From: Candidatus Portnoybacteria bacterium
Lineage (GTDB): Bacteria > Patescibacteriota > Minisyncoccia > Portnoybacterales > GWB1-42-6
Assembly (NCBI GenBank): GCA_028688325.1
Contig: JAQTYI010000001.1
Coordinates: 168,820-232,819, forward strand
Direction of reading: 5' to 3'
DNA: 64,000 nt
The notes beneath the pieces were generated by a model. It did no database searches and had not been told where the DNA came from. It worked only from the letters and a program-made list of their open reading frames with translations. Position 1 is the stretch's first letter. Each line of letters opens with the position of its first letter. This document shows, piece after piece, positions 1 through 8,192 of the stretch. Made by a program: the position numbers and the translations under genes.

Positions 1-3000
1 GTGGAAGTGCCGAGTTTGAAAACATTATCCAAAGACGGATTGATGTCTCCGGCAAAAACCGCCGTGCCGCCATTTAAGATGCTCAAAAAAGTCGAGGTGG
101 CCGAAAGCGCGTCGGAAGAAGTGCCGATGTAAAAATTACCGCCTTGAGAGCTCAAAAACCAATGCTTGTCGTCGGCACCGGCCGAGTAGTCCGAAAGAAC
201 AAGCGAGGGACGCGTGCCGGAAATTTGCAATTTCCAATTGGGAGTGCTCGTGCCAATCCCCACATTCCCGTTGGCCGAAACCGTCAAAGTTGAAGTGGCC
301 TGCCAAGCCGAGTCCTGATAGGTCAAGGTCTGGCCTTGGGTGCCGACGGGCAAGGTGTCCACTCCTATTGTGAATAAAGTTGAGGTGCTCACCCATTCGG
401 TGGCCGAGCCGGTGGATTTGAGAATGTAGCCGTTGGCGCCGGCCGAAGACAAGCTGTCGTAGAGGCCGCCGGTCAGGGCGAAGTTGCCCGAGACCGAGAA
501 CTTCTGGTAAGGCGAGGAGGTGGCAACGCCGATGTTGCCGGTGTTGTTTATCGTCAGATAAGTTGAAGTGGCATTAAGCGCATCGGTGGAGGTGCCTATG
601 AAAAGATTGCCACCCATGGAAGAAAACAGCCAGTGCTTGTCGTTAATTCCGGCGGACATATCGGATAAAGCAAAAAATGTTTTGGTGGAAGAAGCGACCT
701 GAAAATTCCAGGCCGGAGTCGTTGTGCCAATCCCGATCGCTCCGGAAACATCAATTCTCATCCGCTCGGAGCCGCCGGTGAAAAACTTTAATTGGTCGTT
801 GTCCGCGCCGGCCGAATCTTCAGCCGTGATTTTTGTGTCCTGGTCAACATCAATCACTCCGCCCAGAGATCCCCAGGAGGAAGCGCCGTAGCCCTCAAAT
901 TGCTGGGTCTGTGAATTATAGCGAATAATGCCGCTGGTCAAAGAACCGGGCCGCTGGGCGGTGGTGCCCACGGGAATGACAAGGCCGTCTGTGGCGTCAA
1001 TATGCAAAGCGGTCTTGGGGGTGGTCGTGCCAACACCCAGATTTCCGCCGATAAGCGTTAAGTTTCCCCCCGACACCGCCAAGCCGGCTTTGGCCGAGAG
1101 CAGGCCAGAAAAAGAGCCGCCGGTGGCGGCAATGGAACCGGCGAAGGTGGAATCGGTGATGGTGGCGCCGGAGATAGCAACGCCGCTCAACTGATCAATT
1201 TTTTGCGACGACGACCAAGAATAAAAATTATTGGTGGTGTAAGAATTGCTCTGGGAGACGGCGGAACTTTGGCTGCTGCTGACCAGAGCCAAAATTTTTG
1301 TCTCCAGCGAAGCCATGTCGCTCGCCTTGGCATAGTCGCCGGGCGGCAAAACTTGCGTAATTTTTTCTATGCGCTGGACATACTGGATCGTTTGGCCATC
1401 CGGGCTGCCGACGATAATCGGCGGAAAACTCGGCTGCAACGCTTGCAATTTTTGCAAAGCGTTAATTTCGTCGTTCAAAGAAATGCTGAACTGCAATTCG
1501 TTCATTGTCACTTTTAGCTTATTGACTTCCCGGCGCATATCGTCGATGGCGATAAAATATTCTTTGTCGCCCGGCGACAAAGAGGGCATTGGCGGCGCAA
1601 CGGCGATGTGCCTGTAAAACAACGGGTCTATTTCCCGCGCCAATTGTCCGTAGTGGGTTAAATTATAAAAAACAAGAATGGCTTGGCGGCCCGCGCTGGT
1701 CGCGCTGTCGCCGGCGAATGCCAGGCCTTTGTTGATAATGCCGCCGAGATAATCCATCGCGTCCACCAAAACTTCGCCGGCGGCTTGCGGCCAAGAAACA
1801 ACCGGCTTCACCCCGTTCCAAACCGCCAGGCCGGTGTTGTTTATCGCGTCCCCGGATTTCTGGCTGATAACTAAATATTTGTCGTATGCCAGCGACGGCC
1901 ATTCCGTTATGCCGCCAAAAAAATTCCTGGCGGCCGAAGCTATTTTCAAGCTGGCGCGCGAAAAAATTTCTCCCAGATTATCTTTTGCCTGCTCGTTCTT
2001 TCTGTCCAAATTTAAATATGCGTCTTTCACGAAGGCCGGCCAGGCGGCGGCTCTGATTTCGATGTCGGCGATTTTATTTTGCGCGCCCTGGCCGGCCGAT
2101 GCGGTAAAGCCGGAAATGCTCCGTCCGGCTTCCTGAGCAAATTCAACTGCGGCCAAAGGCGCGTTCAAAATGTCGTTCAACAATAAATCCTGATTTTCAA
2201 CCGAACTGATGGAAACGGTCAATCGGCCAAACCGATGAACTGATGAATTGATGAACTGATGAATTGACTCGCCTGTTTGCTCCACCTGCCATGCTAATTC
2301 TTCTCCCGCGCCGGCCAAAGAATCGATTGCGCTCGCGCCGCCATCAACTAAAATCTCCGCTGAATTTTTTATTTCATTCTTAAATTTTTCTCCTTCTTTT
2401 TCATAAAGGCCCGCTTCGTTCTGTTCCTCCCTTTCGTAAAGGGAGGTTAGGAGGGATTTAGTATTCCATAAAACGCCGCTGATTTTTTCCGGTCCATCAA
2501 TAATTATCCTTCCCGCATTTTCCAGAACGGCTGCCGTCTTTTGAGTTATTGCTTCCTGCGCCTGCGGCAGAAACCAGGCGCCCGCCATCAGCAAAACCGT
2601 CAGCATTGCCAGCCGCAACGGCCTTAATTCCTCGCGGACCAGATGCGGCGCCACGCGCGCAATTTTCAACGCTTCTTCAAGCGCCTTGCATCTTAAATAA
2701 AATTTTATACAGGCCTCGCGCGATGCACCGGCGATTTTTTCAAAACCGGCGCCCAGCGCGGCCAGCGGCCAAAGCAGCGCCGCCAAGACCGCGAAGAAAA
2801 CTTTTCCACCCCCCTCCTTTAAATAAAGGAGGGGGGTGGAGGATTTAATTTCCTCCCTCCCCTGCAAAGGGTTCGCCTCGCTCTCGCGCAAGCGAGACGA
2901 GGAGGGTGGGGTGAGATTTAATTCTTGAACTTCCGCCGCTTCAATCTTTTTTTCACTGCCGCGTTTCTGCTCTTTGAAGTTTTGCACCCTCGCCAAATAT

Positions 3001-3356
3001 TCGTCCACCCAATCATTGGTGGTCATCCAGTTGCGGCCGATTTTTTTGGCTCGAAGTTTGCCTTGGCGCACGCGCAAGCTCAAATACTCCTGTGAATATT
3101 TAGCGCGCCTTGACGCTTCCTGCAAAGAAATGAGGCCGCCTTTCTTTTCTTTTTTGTTTTTTGCAGAAAACTGCGATTGGACCTTCGCCGAATATTCGTC
3201 CAGCCATTCCCGGGTGGTCATCCAATCCCGTCCGATCTTTTTGGCTTTTAATTTTCCCCTCCTGGCGCGCAAACTCAAATACTCCTGCGAATAAGGAGTT
3301 AACTCGCTGGCTTCCGCCAAAGAAAGGTAATTATTTTTTTGATCCGCTTGTTCCAT
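1..3356 (-). CDS. Giant partial ORF (more than 1118 aa) that continues past the window start. It has two tandem excisionase/MerR-like HTH domains at the N-terminus, hydrophobic segments, and a long extracellular-looking region with tail-fibre-like GIGTTTP/GNVGIGT repeats.
   Basis: The minus-strand frame was checked codon by codon and is open from position 3431 down to 1. The ATG at 3356..3354 gives MEQADQKNNYLSLAEASELTPYSQEYLSLRARRGKLKAKKIGRDWMTTREWLDEY; this HTH unit is duplicated about 70 aa later. Hydrophobic stretches follow (VFFAVLAALLWPLAALGAGF and LAMLTVLLMAGAWFLP). Downstream there are Ser/Thr/Gly-rich repeats such as GNLGVGTTTPKTALHIDATDGL, GAIGIGTTTPAWNFQVASS and GNVGIGTSTPNWKLQISG. 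The six-frame track missed this ORF because it runs off the window edge. Confidence 0.6.
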   Translation of the reverse strand, partial: MEQADQKNNYLSLAEASELTPYSQEYLSLRARRGKLKAKKIGRDWMTTREWLDEYSAKVQSQFSAKNKKEKKGGLISLQEASRRAKYSQEYLSLRVRQGKLRAKKIGRNWMTTNDWVDEYLARVQNFKEQKRGSEKKIEAAEVQELNLTPPSSSRLRESEANPLQGREEIKSSTPLLYLKEGGGKVFFAVLAALLWPLAALGAGFEKIAGASREACIKFYLRCKALEEALKIARVAPHLVREELRPLRLAMLTVLLMAGAWFLPQAQEAITQKTAAVLENAGRIIIDGPEKISGVLWNTKSLLTSLYEREEQNEAGLYEKEGEKFKNEIKNSAEILVDGGASAIDSLAGAGEELAWQVEQTGESIHQFINSSVHRFGRLTVSISSVENQDLLLNDILNAPLAAVEFAQEAGRSISGFTASAGQGAQNKIADIEIRAAAWPAFVKDAYLNLDRKNEQAKDNLGEIFSRASLKIASAARNFFGGITEWPSLAYDKYLVISQKSGDAINNTGLAVWNGVKPVVSWPQAAGEVLVDAMDYLGGIINKGLAFAGDSATSAGRQAILVFYNLTHYGQLAREIDPLFYRHIAVAPPMPSLSPGDKEYFIAIDDMRREVNKLKVTMNELQFSISLNDEINALQKLQALQPSFPPIIVGSPDGQTIQYVQRIEKITQVLPPGDYAKASDMASLETKILALVSSSQSSAVSQSNSYTTNNFYSWSSSQKIDQLSGVAISGATITDSTFAGSIAATGGSFSGLLSAKAGLAVSGGNLTLIGGNLGVGTTTPKTALHIDATDGLVIPVGTTAQRPGSLTSGIIRYNSQTQQFEGYGASSWGSLGGVIDVDQDTKITAEDSAGADNDQLKFFTGGSERMRIDVSGAIGIGTTTPAWNFQVASSTKTFFALSDMSAGINDKHWLFSSMGGNLFIGTSTDALNATSTYLTINNTGNIGVATSSPYQKFSVSGNFALTGGLYDSLSSAGANGYILKSTGSATEWVSTSTLFTIGVDTLPVGTQGQTLTYQDSAWQATSTLTVSANGNVGIGTSTPNWKLQISGTRPSLVLSDYSAGADDKHWFLSSQGGNFYIGTSSDALSATSTFLSILNGGTAVFAGDINPSLDNVFKLGTS

Positions 3357-4867: not shown

Positions 4868-5623
4868 ATGAGTCGCGCATCAAAACATCTCAAAGCTATT
4901 CTCAGCTGGTGCCTTGACCTTATCTTCCCCCGCTCGTGCCTGGGCTGCGGCCAAGACGGCTCCTACCTATGCCGAGATTGCCGCGACTCTCTGCCGATTG
5001 CCAGCTGCGCCAATTGCCCTTTTTGCGGCCGCCGCTCGCCCTTGGGATACGCCTGCCAAAAATGCCGCCGGCAGCATCATTCTTCTATCTCGGGAATTCT
5101 GATCGCCTCCGACTGGAATAATTTATTGCTTCGGCAAATAATTTACGAATACAAATACCGATTCGTCAAAGAGCTGGCCGATCCGCTTTCAAACCTGGCG
5201 ACAAATTTTTTAGAACGGATTGATTTTATTAAAACGCTGAGGTGCTCCGAAACCGAGATAATCGTCATTCCCGTTCCGCTGCATAAAAAACGCTTTGCTT
5301 GGCGGGGGTTCAACCAATCAGAACTGCTGGCGCAACAAATCAGTAGAAAATTTAATACGGCCGTAAATAACGACATTTTAATTCGCTCCCGCCACGCGCT
5401 TCCCCAAAGAGAGGTGGCGGATAAAAAAGCTCGGGCTGCCAACATCAAAAACGCTTTCGCGCTGTCGCCAAAATTAAATTTGAATGATGATGCCATAAAA
5501 AATAAAATTATTATTCTGGTCGACGACATCTGCACCACCGGCTCAACCTTTCAAGATTGCGCGCGGGCGCTGGCGCCGCTTAAACCCAAAGAAATCTGGG
5601 GGCTGGTCATCGCCAGAGGATAG
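4868..5623 (+). CDS. comF: ComF family protein: double zinc-ribbon followed by a phosphoribosyltransferase-like domain.
   Basis: The N-terminus has CLGCGQDGSYLCRDC...CANCPFCGRR...CQKC. The C-terminus has the PRTase motif IILVDDICTTGST. Confidence 0.75.
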   Translation: MSRASKHLKAILSWCLDLIFPRSCLGCGQDGSYLCRDCRDSLPIASCANCPFCGRRSPLGYACQKCRRQHHSSISGILIASDWNNLLLRQIIYEYKYRFVKELADPLSNLATNFLERIDFIKTLRCSETEIIVIPVPLHKKRFAWRGFNQSELLAQQISRKFNTAVNNDILIRSRHALPQREVADKKARAANIKNAFALSPKLNLNDDAIKNKIIILVDDICTTGSTFQDCARALAPLKPKEIWGLVIARG

Positions 5624-5727
5624 GGATAGCTCCGGCGCCGCGGTTGGATTATCTTCTTTTTATTTGCTATCATGCCTATGAAAGGCCGGATGAAAAATCC
5701 GCACTAAATGCATCCGGCGCAAAAATT

Positions 5728-6051
5728 ATGAAAAAGATAAAAAGGAATCCCGAAATCGCCTGGAGAGAAGAAGAAGAGATGAGAAATAAAGTGGAAGAGA
5801 TTTTAAAACAGGGAGGAGAAACAGAAGAAGTGAGCAAAAAAGGGACCGTAACGCTTGTTTACTCTGGAGCGATGCATCAGTTGAATCTCTTGGGAGGAGA
5901 AATCTGGAAGCTATGCGACGGAACTCGGACGGAGGAAGAAATCGGAGAAGAATTATTAAAAACATTCGATGCCGAACGGGATATTATCTTAAAAGATCTC
6001 AAAGAATTCATCCTGGACCTTCAAAATAAGAAATGGCTTTTTTATGAATAA
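5728..6051 (+). CDS. PqqD-family peptide chaperone (RiPP recognition element).
   Basis: The stretch VTLVYSGAMHQLNLLGGEIWKLCDGTRTEEEIGEELLKTFDAERDIILKDLKEFILDLQNKKWL matches the PqqD fold pattern. Its stop overlaps the start of the next gene (ATGAATAA). The track ORF begins at a TTG at 5644; the ATG at 5728 is preferred. Confidence 0.65.
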   Translation: MKKIKRNPEIAWREEEEMRNKVEEILKQGGETEEVSKKGTVTLVYSGAMHQLNLLGGEIWKLCDGTRTEEEIGEELLKTFDAERDIILKDLKEFILDLQNKKWLFYE

Positions 6052-7054
6052 AAACACTCCCGCCATGATGCCATTGGCGGCCAATTGGGCGCTAACCGTA
6101 AGATGCAATTTCAACTGCAACCACTGCTACTCTCGGACGGATAGCAGCCCCGAATTGGCTTTGAAAGAGATAAAAGTCATCGTTGACAAATTAGTCCGTT
6201 CCCGTGTTCTTTTTGTGAACTTTGGCGGAGGCGAACCGCTGCTGCGAAAAGACTTGTTTGAAATTGCAAACTACGCGAAACGCCGAGGATTGCACATCTC
6301 TATGAACTCGAACGGATCTTTAATAACGAAAGCGGCGGCGAAAAATATAAAAGAATCCGGTTTTCGCCAGGTCGGAATAAGCATGGATAGCCATCTGTCC
6401 GGGATACACGATAAATTCAGAAACGCTCCGGGAAGCCATAAAAAAGCGATCGCAGCAATAGGCCGCCTGAAAAAGGCCGGCATCGAAGTCAGCGTTTCAT
6501 CGGTGATATGCAAGATCAATCACACTAATTTCGAAAAGATCATCGCTCTCGCCAAGAAATTAAAAGTTAATAAGATAAATCTGCACAACTACAAGTGCGG
6601 CGGCCGGGAGTTCGCCAATCGCGACAACCTTGATCTGTCGCCAGAGGAATGGCGCGATTTTTACGGCAAAGTCCTCGAGATAAAAAGCCGAGAAAAAGAA
6701 ATGGATATTTCCCTGGACGACCCGATAATCGCCTCGCTGAAAAATACGGAAAATAAATCTTTGGTGCAAGGGAGCATCTGCGGAAAGCTGTCTTTTTATA
6801 TCAAGTCCAACGGAGATATGACTCCGTGCGGCTTCATTCCTACAAAGATAGGAAATATTCTGACGGACTCCTTTAAAGAAGCATGGGAGAGCTCGCCGAT
6901 ATTACATACAATGAGAAACAAAGAGCCGAAAGGCAAATGCAAGAAATGCAAATTTTTCACTTCTTGCATCGGAGGTTGCACCGCAAGGGCGTATGCCATA
7001 AGCGGCGACTTCAACTCACCTGACCCTCATTGCTGGTATGAGCCGAAAAATTAG
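6044..7054 (+). CDS. Radical SAM protein with a C-terminal SPASM domain (PqqE/MftC/AlbA-like peptide maturase).
   Basis: CNFNCNHC is the CxxxCxxC SAM-cluster motif. GGGEPLL is present. The C-terminus has the Cys-rich SPASM region CGKLSF...CGFIP...CKKCKFFTSCIGGCTARAY...CW. Confidence 0.85.
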   Translation: MNKNTPAMMPLAANWALTVRCNFNCNHCYSRTDSSPELALKEIKVIVDKLVRSRVLFVNFGGGEPLLRKDLFEIANYAKRRGLHISMNSNGSLITKAAAKNIKESGFRQVGISMDSHLSGIHDKFRNAPGSHKKAIAAIGRLKKAGIEVSVSSVICKINHTNFEKIIALAKKLKVNKINLHNYKCGGREFANRDNLDLSPEEWRDFYGKVLEIKSREKEMDISLDDPIIASLKNTENKSLVQGSICGKLSFYIKSNGDMTPCGFIPTKIGNILTDSFKEAWESSPILHTMRNKEPKGKCKKCKFFTSCIGGCTARAYAISGDFNSPDPHCWYEPKN

Positions 7055-7133
7055 GCGTTCGCCGATTTAATGACGCTGCGGTTGAAGAAAAAGGTCCCAT
7101 GGATTATAATATCAATGAAAGGAGGTGCGTTTT

Positions 7134-7193
7134 ATGAAGATAAAATATATTCAACCGAAAATAGTCGGGAGTTCCAGTATTCATCCTTGCTGA
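7134..7193 (+). CDS. Candidate 19-aa precursor peptide MKIKYIQPKIVGSSSIHPC.
   Basis: The ATG at 7134 is preceded by AAAGGAGGTG at a 7-nt spacing, a consensus Shine-Dalgarno. The ORF lies in the 163-nt gap between the two SPASM genes and ends with a single C-terminal Cys. There is no other support. Confidence 0.3.
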   Translation: MKIKYIQPKIVGSSSIHPC

Positions 7194-7217
7194 TGATATC
7201 CTGCTGAACGAACAATT

Positions 7218-8156
7218 ATGCCAATGAATTTGAGCGCGCCCATTCGGGTGTATTGGGATGTGCGCGCCGATATTAATACTGAAAAACCGGCAAGCGGCGC
7301 CGAAAAAACCGTTATCGCCATTTTGGAAAGATTAACGCGGGAAAAAATATTCTATTTATCGATTTCGGGATGGGAGAATATATCCTATGAGGCGTTGCGC
7401 GAAATGCTGCCCGGCTTGGATAAAAACGGCATCTCGGTCTCGTTGATGCTTTCGGGCGGAAAAACACTCCCCGAAAACGAATTACTTTTACACGCAAGTT
7501 ATGCAAAAGAATTCGTTTTTGAAATAGATTCTGAAAAAGATTTGACGAAGTTATCTTCGCTTCAGAAAATATTAAAAAAAACACCGGCAAGAATAAGCGT
7601 TTCCATATATCCGCATGAAGGAAATTACGGCCGAATCCCTTCGATCATCGAATATTACGCAAAAAATGGAGTCCAAAATTTCATTATTCCGGCTCCCGGG
7701 ATCGCCGACAAGTCCAAAATCTCCGCACGCGACCATTCCCTCAGGGAGAAAATAGCACGCGCTATTAACAGCTCCCCTTCCTCGCGGAACGGTACCCTGA
7801 ATTTTATCGTCCACGATCCCTTTTTGTGGAAGCTGCTCGACCCAAGGTGTTTTGAAAATAAAAAGATGACTTTTGAAGGATGCCAAGCGGCTGATTCGAT
7901 AGCTTATATTGATTTTAAGGGCGATGTCTTTCCCTGCTTGTTGCTGCCAATAAGATTGGGCAATCTGCTCCAAGACAGTTTAAAGGAAATATGGTCGTCG
8001 AAAGAAAGGAAAGCTGTCAGAAAAAAGATAGAAGACATTCCTGAAAATTGTAAAAAATGTTCCCGGCTCTCGGAATGCAACGGCGGGTGCAGGGGCTTAT
8101 CATTATTGATCAACAATAATATCTGTTCGAAAGACCCAACCTGTCCCGTTTGTTGA
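7218..8156 (+). CDS. SPASM-domain protein related to radical SAM enzymes but lacking the CxxxCxxC SAM-cluster motif (degenerate rSAM paralog).
   Basis: The C-terminus carries CQAADSIAYIDFKGDVFPC...CKKCSRLSECNGGCRG...CSKDPTCPVC, a 7-Cys SPASM-like motif. The N-terminal barrel region (VYWDVRADINTEK, LSISGWEN) has no Cys triad. Confidence 0.6.
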   Translation: MPMNLSAPIRVYWDVRADINTEKPASGAEKTVIAILERLTREKIFYLSISGWENISYEALREMLPGLDKNGISVSLMLSGGKTLPENELLLHASYAKEFVFEIDSEKDLTKLSSLQKILKKTPARISVSIYPHEGNYGRIPSIIEYYAKNGVQNFIIPAPGIADKSKISARDHSLREKIARAINSSPSSRNGTLNFIVHDPFLWKLLDPRCFENKKMTFEGCQAADSIAYIDFKGDVFPCLLLPIRLGNLLQDSLKEIWSSKERKAVRKKIEDIPENCKKCSRLSECNGGCRGLSLLINNNICSKDPTCPVC

Positions 8157-8192
8157 GCGCCCATAAATCATAATTGAAACAATAAATAAAAT

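Follow-up and report, generated by a model that had tools for sequence, protein, structure and literature searches.

A 19-codon gene inside a divergent GeoRSP cassette of a Candidatus Portnoybacteria bacterium encodes the probable substrate peptide of a radical SAM/SPASM maturase

GeoRSP is a widespread curated three-protein system with the models TIGR04302 (PqqD chaperone), TIGR04303 (radical SAM enzyme), and TIGR04304 (SPASM protein), and no substrate was described for it in anything that was searched. Literature searches for GeoRSP, its TIGR accessions, geopeptide, and the peptide motif described below returned nothing relevant. Within the literature and databases searched, the precursor assignment reported here is new, and the kind of system to which it belongs is well known. 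Among the related enzymes, SkfB forms a thioether, PqqE forms a C-C cross-link, and the AhbD/NirJ-type haem synthases and MftC perform oxidative decarboxylations. For substrate recognition, [Y/W]xxPx[L/V/I/F/A] is the leader motif recognised by the discrete PqqD-like RREs of lasso pathways, and a second RiPP class depends on its YxxP motif for RRE binding (PMC13381572).

The window analysed in this study is the whole stretch of 64,000 nucleotides from contig JAQTYI010000001.1 (positions 168,820 to 232,819). It contains a pqqD gene, a radical SAM/SPASM gene, and a SPASM-only gene in this order and all on the forward strand (Table 1), and the same order was found in the loci L002, L004, L030, L042, and others. 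The radical SAM protein aligned over its full length with TIGR04303 (GeoRSP_rSAM) and, with 460.9 bits, exceeded the cutoff of 400. The best NCBIfam match of the PqqD protein was TIGR04302 at 97.9 bits versus a cutoff of 100, with a full-length alignment of residues 1-106 to profile positions 1-102. The best match of the SPASM-only protein was TIGR04304 (GeoRSP_SPASM) at 162.9 bits versus a cutoff of 300, with residues 5-309 aligned to positions 2-292 of 293. These two scores below the curated cutoffs were counted against the reading of the peptide as a substrate. The CX3CX2C motif of the radical SAM enzyme was located at C21/C25/C28 and its SPASM Cys cluster at the C-terminus, and all ten Cys residues of the SPASM-only protein fell within residues 211-312. 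Among the loci collected, CX3CX2C was present in 34 of 34 distinct radical SAM proteins versus none of the 34 SPASM-only partners. The radical SAM protein had 816 homologues at E < 1e-60, and many homologues carry GeoRSP names from JGI and NCBI. By gene order, domain make-up, and best full-length matches, the window cassette is classified as a divergent GeoRSP system (PqqD, radical SAM/SPASM, SPASM-only). It differs from the curated system in that the curated set comprises three proteins only, with no precursor-peptide model matched, and in that the window copy is divergent and lies in a Patescibacteria genome without the accessory genes present elsewhere.

Table 1. Features of the GeoRSP-type cassette and a nearby gene; positions are numbered from the first nucleotide of the window.
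Feature	Position	Strand	Description
PqqD-family peptide chaperone (RRE), 107 aa	5728..6051	+	Pfam PqqD, E = 9.6e-16
Radical SAM/SPASM maturase, 336 aa	6044..7054	+	Pfam Radical_SAM and SPASM
Sigma-70-like promoter candidate, TTGAAG-17 nt-TATAAT	7082..7110	+	Consensus match only
Shine-Dalgarno AAAGGAGGTG	7118-7127	+	GGAGG at 7121-7125; read from the sequence
Peptide ORF	7134-7193	+	ATG 7134; 19 sense codons, MKIKYIQPKIVGSSSIHPC; TGA 7191-7193
Leader part M1-V11 (MKIKYIQPKIV)	7134..7166	+	Carries Y5-x-x-P8-x-I10, a putative RRE-binding motif
Core part G12-C19 (GSSSIHPC) and TGA	7167..7193	+	Presumed modification site
SPASM-only partner, 312 aa	7218..8156	+	Pfam SPASM; radical-SAM-like paralogue without SAM-cluster motif
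recG	9647-11860		RecG 59-68% identical to Parcubacteria/Portnoybacteria proteins

The window radical SAM enzyme was compared with its better-known relatives. Its nearest solved relatives were SkfB, PqqE, and anSME, with SkfB first and PqqE second, and its nearest curated relatives in NCBIfam were the AhbD/NirJ-type haem synthases and MftC. The sole PDB sequence match of the window PqqD protein was the lasso RRE TbiB1 (5v1u/5v1v). Like the pairing of TbiB1 with the TbiA leader, the window combines a discrete PqqD-like protein with an aromatic-x-x-Pro-x-hydrophobic leader. However, the maturase of the window is a radical SAM/SPASM enzyme, neither the lasso B2 protease nor the C (Asn-synthetase-like) lactam synthetase was found among the neighbouring genes of the cassette, and the core contains no acidic residue and so lacks the lasso Asp/Glu acceptor (core position 7-9). 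The window system is predicted to resemble a lasso pathway at the recognition step only, and its product is not classed as a lasso peptide.

In the mycofactocin and PQQ systems, as in the window, the precursor is very short and is accompanied by a PqqD-type chaperone and by a radical SAM/SPASM enzyme directed, in the window by our reading, near the peptide C-terminus. The window radical SAM protein scored 173.6 bits against MftC (TIGR03962, cutoff 265) and 112.8 bits against PqqE (TIGR02109, cutoff 381). MftA ends in GVY and PqqA has E-x3-Y, whereas the window peptide ends in HPC and contains no Glu. Furthermore, neither of the two systems is known to have a SPASM-only paralogue or dispersed multi-copy precursor genes. 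Because the defining features of the lasso, mycofactocin, and PQQ systems were each looked for and found to be absent, the window was assigned to none of them. The systems of the sactipeptide and ranthipeptide maturases (SkfB, AlbA, PapB, NxxcB) resemble the window in that a radical SAM enzyme bearing auxiliary clusters is combined with an RRE and with a core that contains Cys. In contrast, similarity to them was weak (57.8 bits), the window peptide has one Cys at its extreme C-terminus, and Asn/Ser at -5, the candidate acceptor, varies within the family. A thioether is a candidate only. By analogy, the mode of action in the window would be that of an RRE-dependent radical SAM pathway for a RiPP or a cofactor.

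Beyond the cassette, the window encodes ComF-like, GIY-YIG, and RecG proteins, and the RecG identities (Table 1) mark the host as a Patescibacteria (CPR) bacterium. The window holds a minimal four-gene unit, pqqD-rSAM-peptide-SPASM, and accessory genes were absent across its 64 kb. Beyond its own lineage, the window radical SAM protein had no homologue of more than 59% identity, which suggests that the module is old in this reduced genome or was acquired horizontally. Between the end of the SPASM-only gene and the convergent GIY-YIG gene (8451-8705), a perfect hairpin of 18 bp, AT-rich with a GC core, was located at 8182-8221 on the reverse strand; it is probably a bidirectional terminator that closes the cassette. 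At the left end of the window, a giant gene of 4577 aa in the public calls occupies about positions 1-3356 on the reverse strand; it starts near 3356, exits the window, and has no Pfam match on record.

A preliminary description of this DNA had pointed to a 163-nt spacer in an otherwise packed unit and to a 19-codon ORF within it, placed between two SPASM genes and preceded by a consensus Shine-Dalgarno sequence (SD). These observations were borne out. The spacer extends over 7055-7217, from the end of the radical SAM/SPASM gene at 7054 to the start of the SPASM-only gene at 7218, and upstream of it the pqqD stop overlaps the radical SAM start (6044) by 8 nt. Pfam found SPASM domains in both flanking proteins, and the 3' end of the SD lies 7 nt before the A of ATG 7134. 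The TTGAAG-17-TATAAT element was the top promoter-like score (10/12) within 5400-8700 on both strands and ends 24 nt 5' of the peptide ATG. No terminator-like hairpin followed the stop codon of the window ORF. In the public gene calls of the MAG GCA_028710785.1, nothing was called in the spacer.

A second in-frame TGA follows directly at 7194-7196. The possibility that the TGA next to Cys is read as selenocysteine was considered and rejected, since the stop codon is TAA or TAG in 36 of the 119 family members listed and two TGA codons stand in a row in the window.

The ORF was intact in four further contigs of the same lineage with 97-100% identical radical SAM proteins. One substitution (S15N) was found in the 57 nt of the ORF versus six in the 24 nt downstream of it, and S15N is a change towards the commonest residue of the peptide family. 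A genome scan with the window radical SAM protein returned eight true relatives of 52-57% identity. In two of these loci, L002 from a Desulfuromonadaceae MAG and L004 from a Geoalkalibacter MAG, the spacer between the radical SAM and SPASM genes encodes MKKYMKPRVVGSSNVHPC with an SD. A further locus fetched independently (L146) encodes MKKYIKPRVVGSSNVHPC between the same two genes. Radical SAM identity was about 53-57% across the loci that share the peptide position, and about 54% for the Desulfuromonadota loci. Gly, His, Pro, and the C-terminal Cys were present in all the members found by context (L002, L004, L146, and L145), which were not selected by pattern.

Metagenome contigs were scanned, blind to gene context, with the back-translated pattern P-x-(NTN)-V-G-(S/T)-(S/T)-x-(NTN)-H-P-C-stop. 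The scan yielded at least 120 loci, where a rough information-content estimate gave only a few matches expected by chance, the size of the collection being unknown. Among the 121 matches listed, 119 were small ORFs that encode 17-23 aa and comprise 72 distinct sequences. They conform to M-K-K/R..(Y/F)xxPx(V/I)VGSSx(V/I)HPC-stop, where much of the core conservation was imposed by the search pattern. All of these ORFs also had an N-terminus rich in M-K/R, and in all of them the third residue before Pro was Tyr or Phe; both features lie outside the pattern. An ATG start was found in 107 of the 119, and 109 of the 119 had an SD of the GGAG/GAGG class spaced from the start as in the window. In a 120th match (L051, 982-1020), ...VVGSSGVHPCW, TGG replaces the stop codon and a NosD-like gene follows; a sequencing error, a pseudogene, or an extension of the C-terminus could account for this variant.

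Scans of ten family members against NCBIfam and Pfam at E <= 10 matched no model to the peptide itself, and a weak match, covering residues 1-10, was obtained between an artificial tandem of one member and the lasso leader model NF033528. By exact look-up, ten members (nine of 20-23 aa and one extended reading of 37 aa) were absent among about 15 billion proteins. In L027, MNKVRYVPPRIVGSSAVHPC and a second peptide, read as VKKIKYVKPRIVGSSAVHPC, are encoded near 2407 and 7214 in oriented coordinates, where they flank a CarboxypepD_reg - CarboxypepD_reg - NosD-like - CarboxypepD_reg block. Since these are two different family peptides, several precursor genes can occur in one genome.

The codon usage of the family was analysed in 115 distinct DNA segments. 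The Tyr/Phe codon, which the pattern left free, was T-(A/T)-Y in 115 of 115 segments, and the codon four before the end was G/A-T-N (Val/Ile) in all of them. Ser was retained through both the AGY and the TCN codon families. Third codon positions inside the ORF had an entropy of 1.8-1.9 bits, and the positions 5' of the SD region and 3' of the stop codon were unconserved at about 1.8-2.0 bits. Codon-position entropy, the use of both Ser codon families, and the unconserved flanks indicate selection on the peptide and not on an RNA or DNA element. Downstream of the ORFs, a terminator-like hairpin with a T-run occurred within 80 nt of the stop codon in 56 of 111 loci versus 4 of 111 control windows.

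The preliminary description had also allowed that so short an ORF could be spurious. A single 19-codon sequence with an SD could indeed have arisen by chance as an open frame in a non-coding spacer, and its length and its absence from public annotation fit such an origin. This origin is ruled out by conservation in more than 120 loci of several phyla, together with the SD sites, the start-codon bias, the codon periodicity, the invariant pattern-free Tyr/Phe codon, and the substitution counts within the lineage of the window; the probability left to it is negligible. The peptide gene is real and under protein-level selection with near certainty. Judged by these signatures, ORF 7134-7193 is a genuine and widely conserved gene that annotation has overlooked.

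Another suggestion had been that the ORF is an upstream leader that regulates the downstream gene. In this reading, its translation would only regulate or couple the SPASM-only gene, and the peptide would have no function. The window itself makes termination-reinitiation coupling plausible, as the ORF ends 24 nt before the SPASM-only ATG (7218) and this ATG has no obvious SD. However, conservation was found at the amino-acid level and not in the RNA, and no match to Rfam was obtained for the spacer at E <= 1, so that no structured RNA or riboswitch was found in it. Most of the family members listed, about three quarters, are not located 5' of a SPASM gene at all, and a terminator-like hairpin separates the peptide and SPASM genes in 14 of 22 cassette loci. 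A purely regulatory leader is therefore largely refuted and highly improbable. Because of the short gap and the missing SD at the SPASM-only start, translational coupling may act in the window in addition to a function of the peptide.

The genomic settings of the peptide genes were compared in the metagenome loci. Among the matches listed, the arrangement pqqD-rSAM-peptide-SPASM was found in about 22 loci, always in the same order. In Desulfuromonadales-type loci, the gene order was NosD-like, PhnD-like, TPR, YeeE-like, PqqD, radical SAM, peptide, SPASM. Where a cassette had no internal peptide (L145 and L131), a peptide gene headed the same co-directional cluster 8-11 kb upstream. In L131, this cluster is 13 kb long and ends with PqqD, radical SAM, and SPASM genes; its full order is peptide, NosD-like, CarboxypepD_reg, OpuAC-like, PhnD-like, TPR, YeeE-like, ArsP, cupin, PqqD, radical SAM, SPASM. 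L145 has a cluster of the same type, with the peptide MKKSYVTPRIVGSAVVHPC, which lies outside the search pattern, 8 kb upstream of the cassette. Other precursor candidates were sought upstream of pqqD and elsewhere in the cassettes, and no better one was found. Furthermore, no other maturase-type enzyme recurred beside the peptide in the family loci examined.

In other phyla, GeoRSP genes and the peptide were contained in larger co-directional clusters, as in L131, L145 (1247-11889), L148, L149, L052, L081, L091, and L111. These clusters include genes for NosD-like beta-helix, CarboxypepD_reg, OpuAC/PhnD-like, ResB-like, and YeeE-like (Sulf_transp) proteins, an ArsP_1 permease, and a small cupin, and sometimes also a cysteine-desulfurase-like Aminotran_5 gene. 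Judged by gene content, their function would be periplasmic and concern metals or sulfur.

Several arrangements were counted against the substrate reading. Among the 56 loci with enough flank, the peptide was inside the cassette in 12, about a fifth. Most of the copies listed adjoin genes for secreted or periplasmic proteins, and the link of these copies to GeoRSP is a candidate only. No peptide was found within the examined DNA of L001, L003, L005, L007, L008, L142-144, and L147-150; for L148 and L149, examined with 10-kb flanks, the DNA ends inside the NosD-like gene, just before the site of the L145-type peptide. Nitrospirae-type cassettes with abutting radical SAM and SPASM genes had no peptide within the examined flanks. 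In these peptide-less Nitrospirae-type loci, a six-frame search for small ORFs preceded by an SD and for relaxed motifs (H.C*, PC*, Y..P..G) found nothing conserved.

Some cassettes departed from the usual arrangement. In L006, a 1.7-kb insertion (4972-6679) is located exactly at the usual peptide site between the radical SAM and SPASM genes. On the far side of the insertion the 3' end of the radical SAM gene (PDPHCWVEE) occurs a second time, and opposite-strand ORFs lie inside it; it looks like a mobile insertion, possibly of toxin-antitoxin type, that displaced or replaced the peptide gene. In L144 (4839-5744) and L150 (11066-11520), a PhnD-like gene or a HicAB pair takes the place of the SPASM-only gene after the radical SAM gene, which means that the SPASM-only partner is not always adjacent.

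The copies outside the cassettes raise the alternative that the peptide is a real small protein serving extracytoplasmic genes of the NosD-like, CarboxypepD_reg, ArsP, YeeE-like, or cytochrome type, where its His-Pro-Cys end might, for instance, bind metal or sulfur, and is a neighbour of GeoRSP and not its substrate. About three quarters of the family listed lie outside GeoRSP cassettes. The peptide gene is located just downstream of multi-CxxCH cytochrome-like genes in about 22 listed loci, and in about 27 further loci without a cassette the next gene encodes a CarboxypepD_reg, NosD-like, or ArsP protein. Other common upstream neighbours encode FG-GAP, HD, and other proteins, and a common downstream neighbour encodes a CarboxypepD_reg-domain protein. 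His and Cys are, moreover, typical metal ligands. Against this alternative, the window peptide accompanies the three GeoRSP genes only, with no accessory gene within 64 kb, its fixed position between the radical SAM and SPASM genes recurs in several phyla, and its leader motif is of the RRE type and stands beside a PqqD gene. We consider the alternative improbable. As the accessory genes themselves co-cluster with GeoRSP, both links can hold together.

A recurrent triad on one strand, consisting of a large multi-CxxCH cytochrome-like protein gene, the peptide gene, and a CarboxypepD_reg gene, was observed in about 20 listed metagenome loci, with no GeoRSP gene nearby in the DNA examined. Examples are L129 (33-3601) and L038 (647-9524).

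The N-terminal half of the peptide was compared with the leader motifs of RRE-dependent pathways. The window peptide contains Y5-I-Q-P8-K-I10, and (Y/F)xxPx(V/I/L/M) was present in all listed family members (alignment A1). By pattern, the N-terminal motif matches the type of leader motif that is bound by RREs. A leader of 11 aa is unusually short among RRE-dependent systems, and this was also counted against the substrate reading.

On this evidence, ORF 7134-7193 is likely a translated 19-aa precursor and the substrate of the GeoRSP-type cassette that surrounds it. The substrate reading draws on co-localisation and leader-motif logic, and also on synteny, the context-blind recovery of the family, its coding signature, the terminators, the type of enzyme, and the absence of a rival maturase nearby. 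The proposal of the preliminary description, that the ORF encodes the substrate of the adjacent maturase, is supported in this way by the synteny, the RRE-type leader motif, and the lack of a better candidate; the check on which it had been made to depend, retention of the ORF and its SD at syntenic loci, gave a positive result in distant lineages (L002, L004, L146, and the metagenome loci).

In the proposed pathway, transcription of the peptide gene would begin at the promoter-like site in front of it, reach it from pqqD-rSAM by read-through, or take both routes, and translation would start from its consensus SD. The basic N-terminal half of the peptide (MK..Y-x-x-P-x-V/I-V, residues 1-11) would be a minimal leader that docks on the PqqD-like RRE, with binding as for lasso and PQQ leaders. 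The RRE would then hand the core G-S-S-x-(V/I)-H-P-C (residues 12-19) to the radical SAM enzyme, which may alter it through 5'-deoxyadenosyl radical chemistry and the SPASM auxiliary clusters. The SPASM-only paralogue may serve as a second Fe-S partner that does not cleave SAM. RRE binding, modification, chemistry, and product role are what we infer from the sequences.

The most likely reaction would involve the invariant C-terminal Cys, either in a thioether-type cross-link or in an MftC-like C-terminal oxidative decarboxylation. A Cys-centred cross-link or a C-terminal decarboxylation is favoured because the nearest curated relatives of the enzyme are AhbD/NirJ and MftC and the nearest solved ones are SkfB and PqqE. 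A thioether or C-terminal cross-link via the single Cys, as suggested in the preliminary description, is a plausible candidate.

The product could be a peptide-derived cofactor or a metal- or sulfur-carrying small molecule comparable to PQQ or mycofactocin. Its source would be the (V/I)-H-P-C end of a precursor of 18-20 aa, extracytoplasmic modules in anaerobes would use it, and the CPR bacterium would keep only the four-gene unit. This is a tentative reading by analogy, and we regard it as rather unlikely. If it were true, the users would be the NosD-like, CarboxypepD_reg, multihaem-cytochrome, YeeE, and ArsP modules of Desulfuromonadota and Nitrospirota, and the GeoRSP product would not be an antibiotic-type RiPP.

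The peptide family provides GeoRSP with a concrete candidate substrate of 17-23 aa that ends in His-Pro-Cys and is missed by gene callers. With such a candidate, the chemistry of an orphan radical SAM family becomes directly testable, and annotators gain a model of an overlooked gene class. The window also places GeoRSP in a CPR bacterium; to our knowledge, dedicated secondary-metabolite machinery is rare among CPR bacteria. Finally, given its recurrent links to NosD-like, YeeE-like, ArsP, and cytochrome-type genes, the peptide family may take part in the periplasmic metal or sulfur biology of environmentally important anaerobes.
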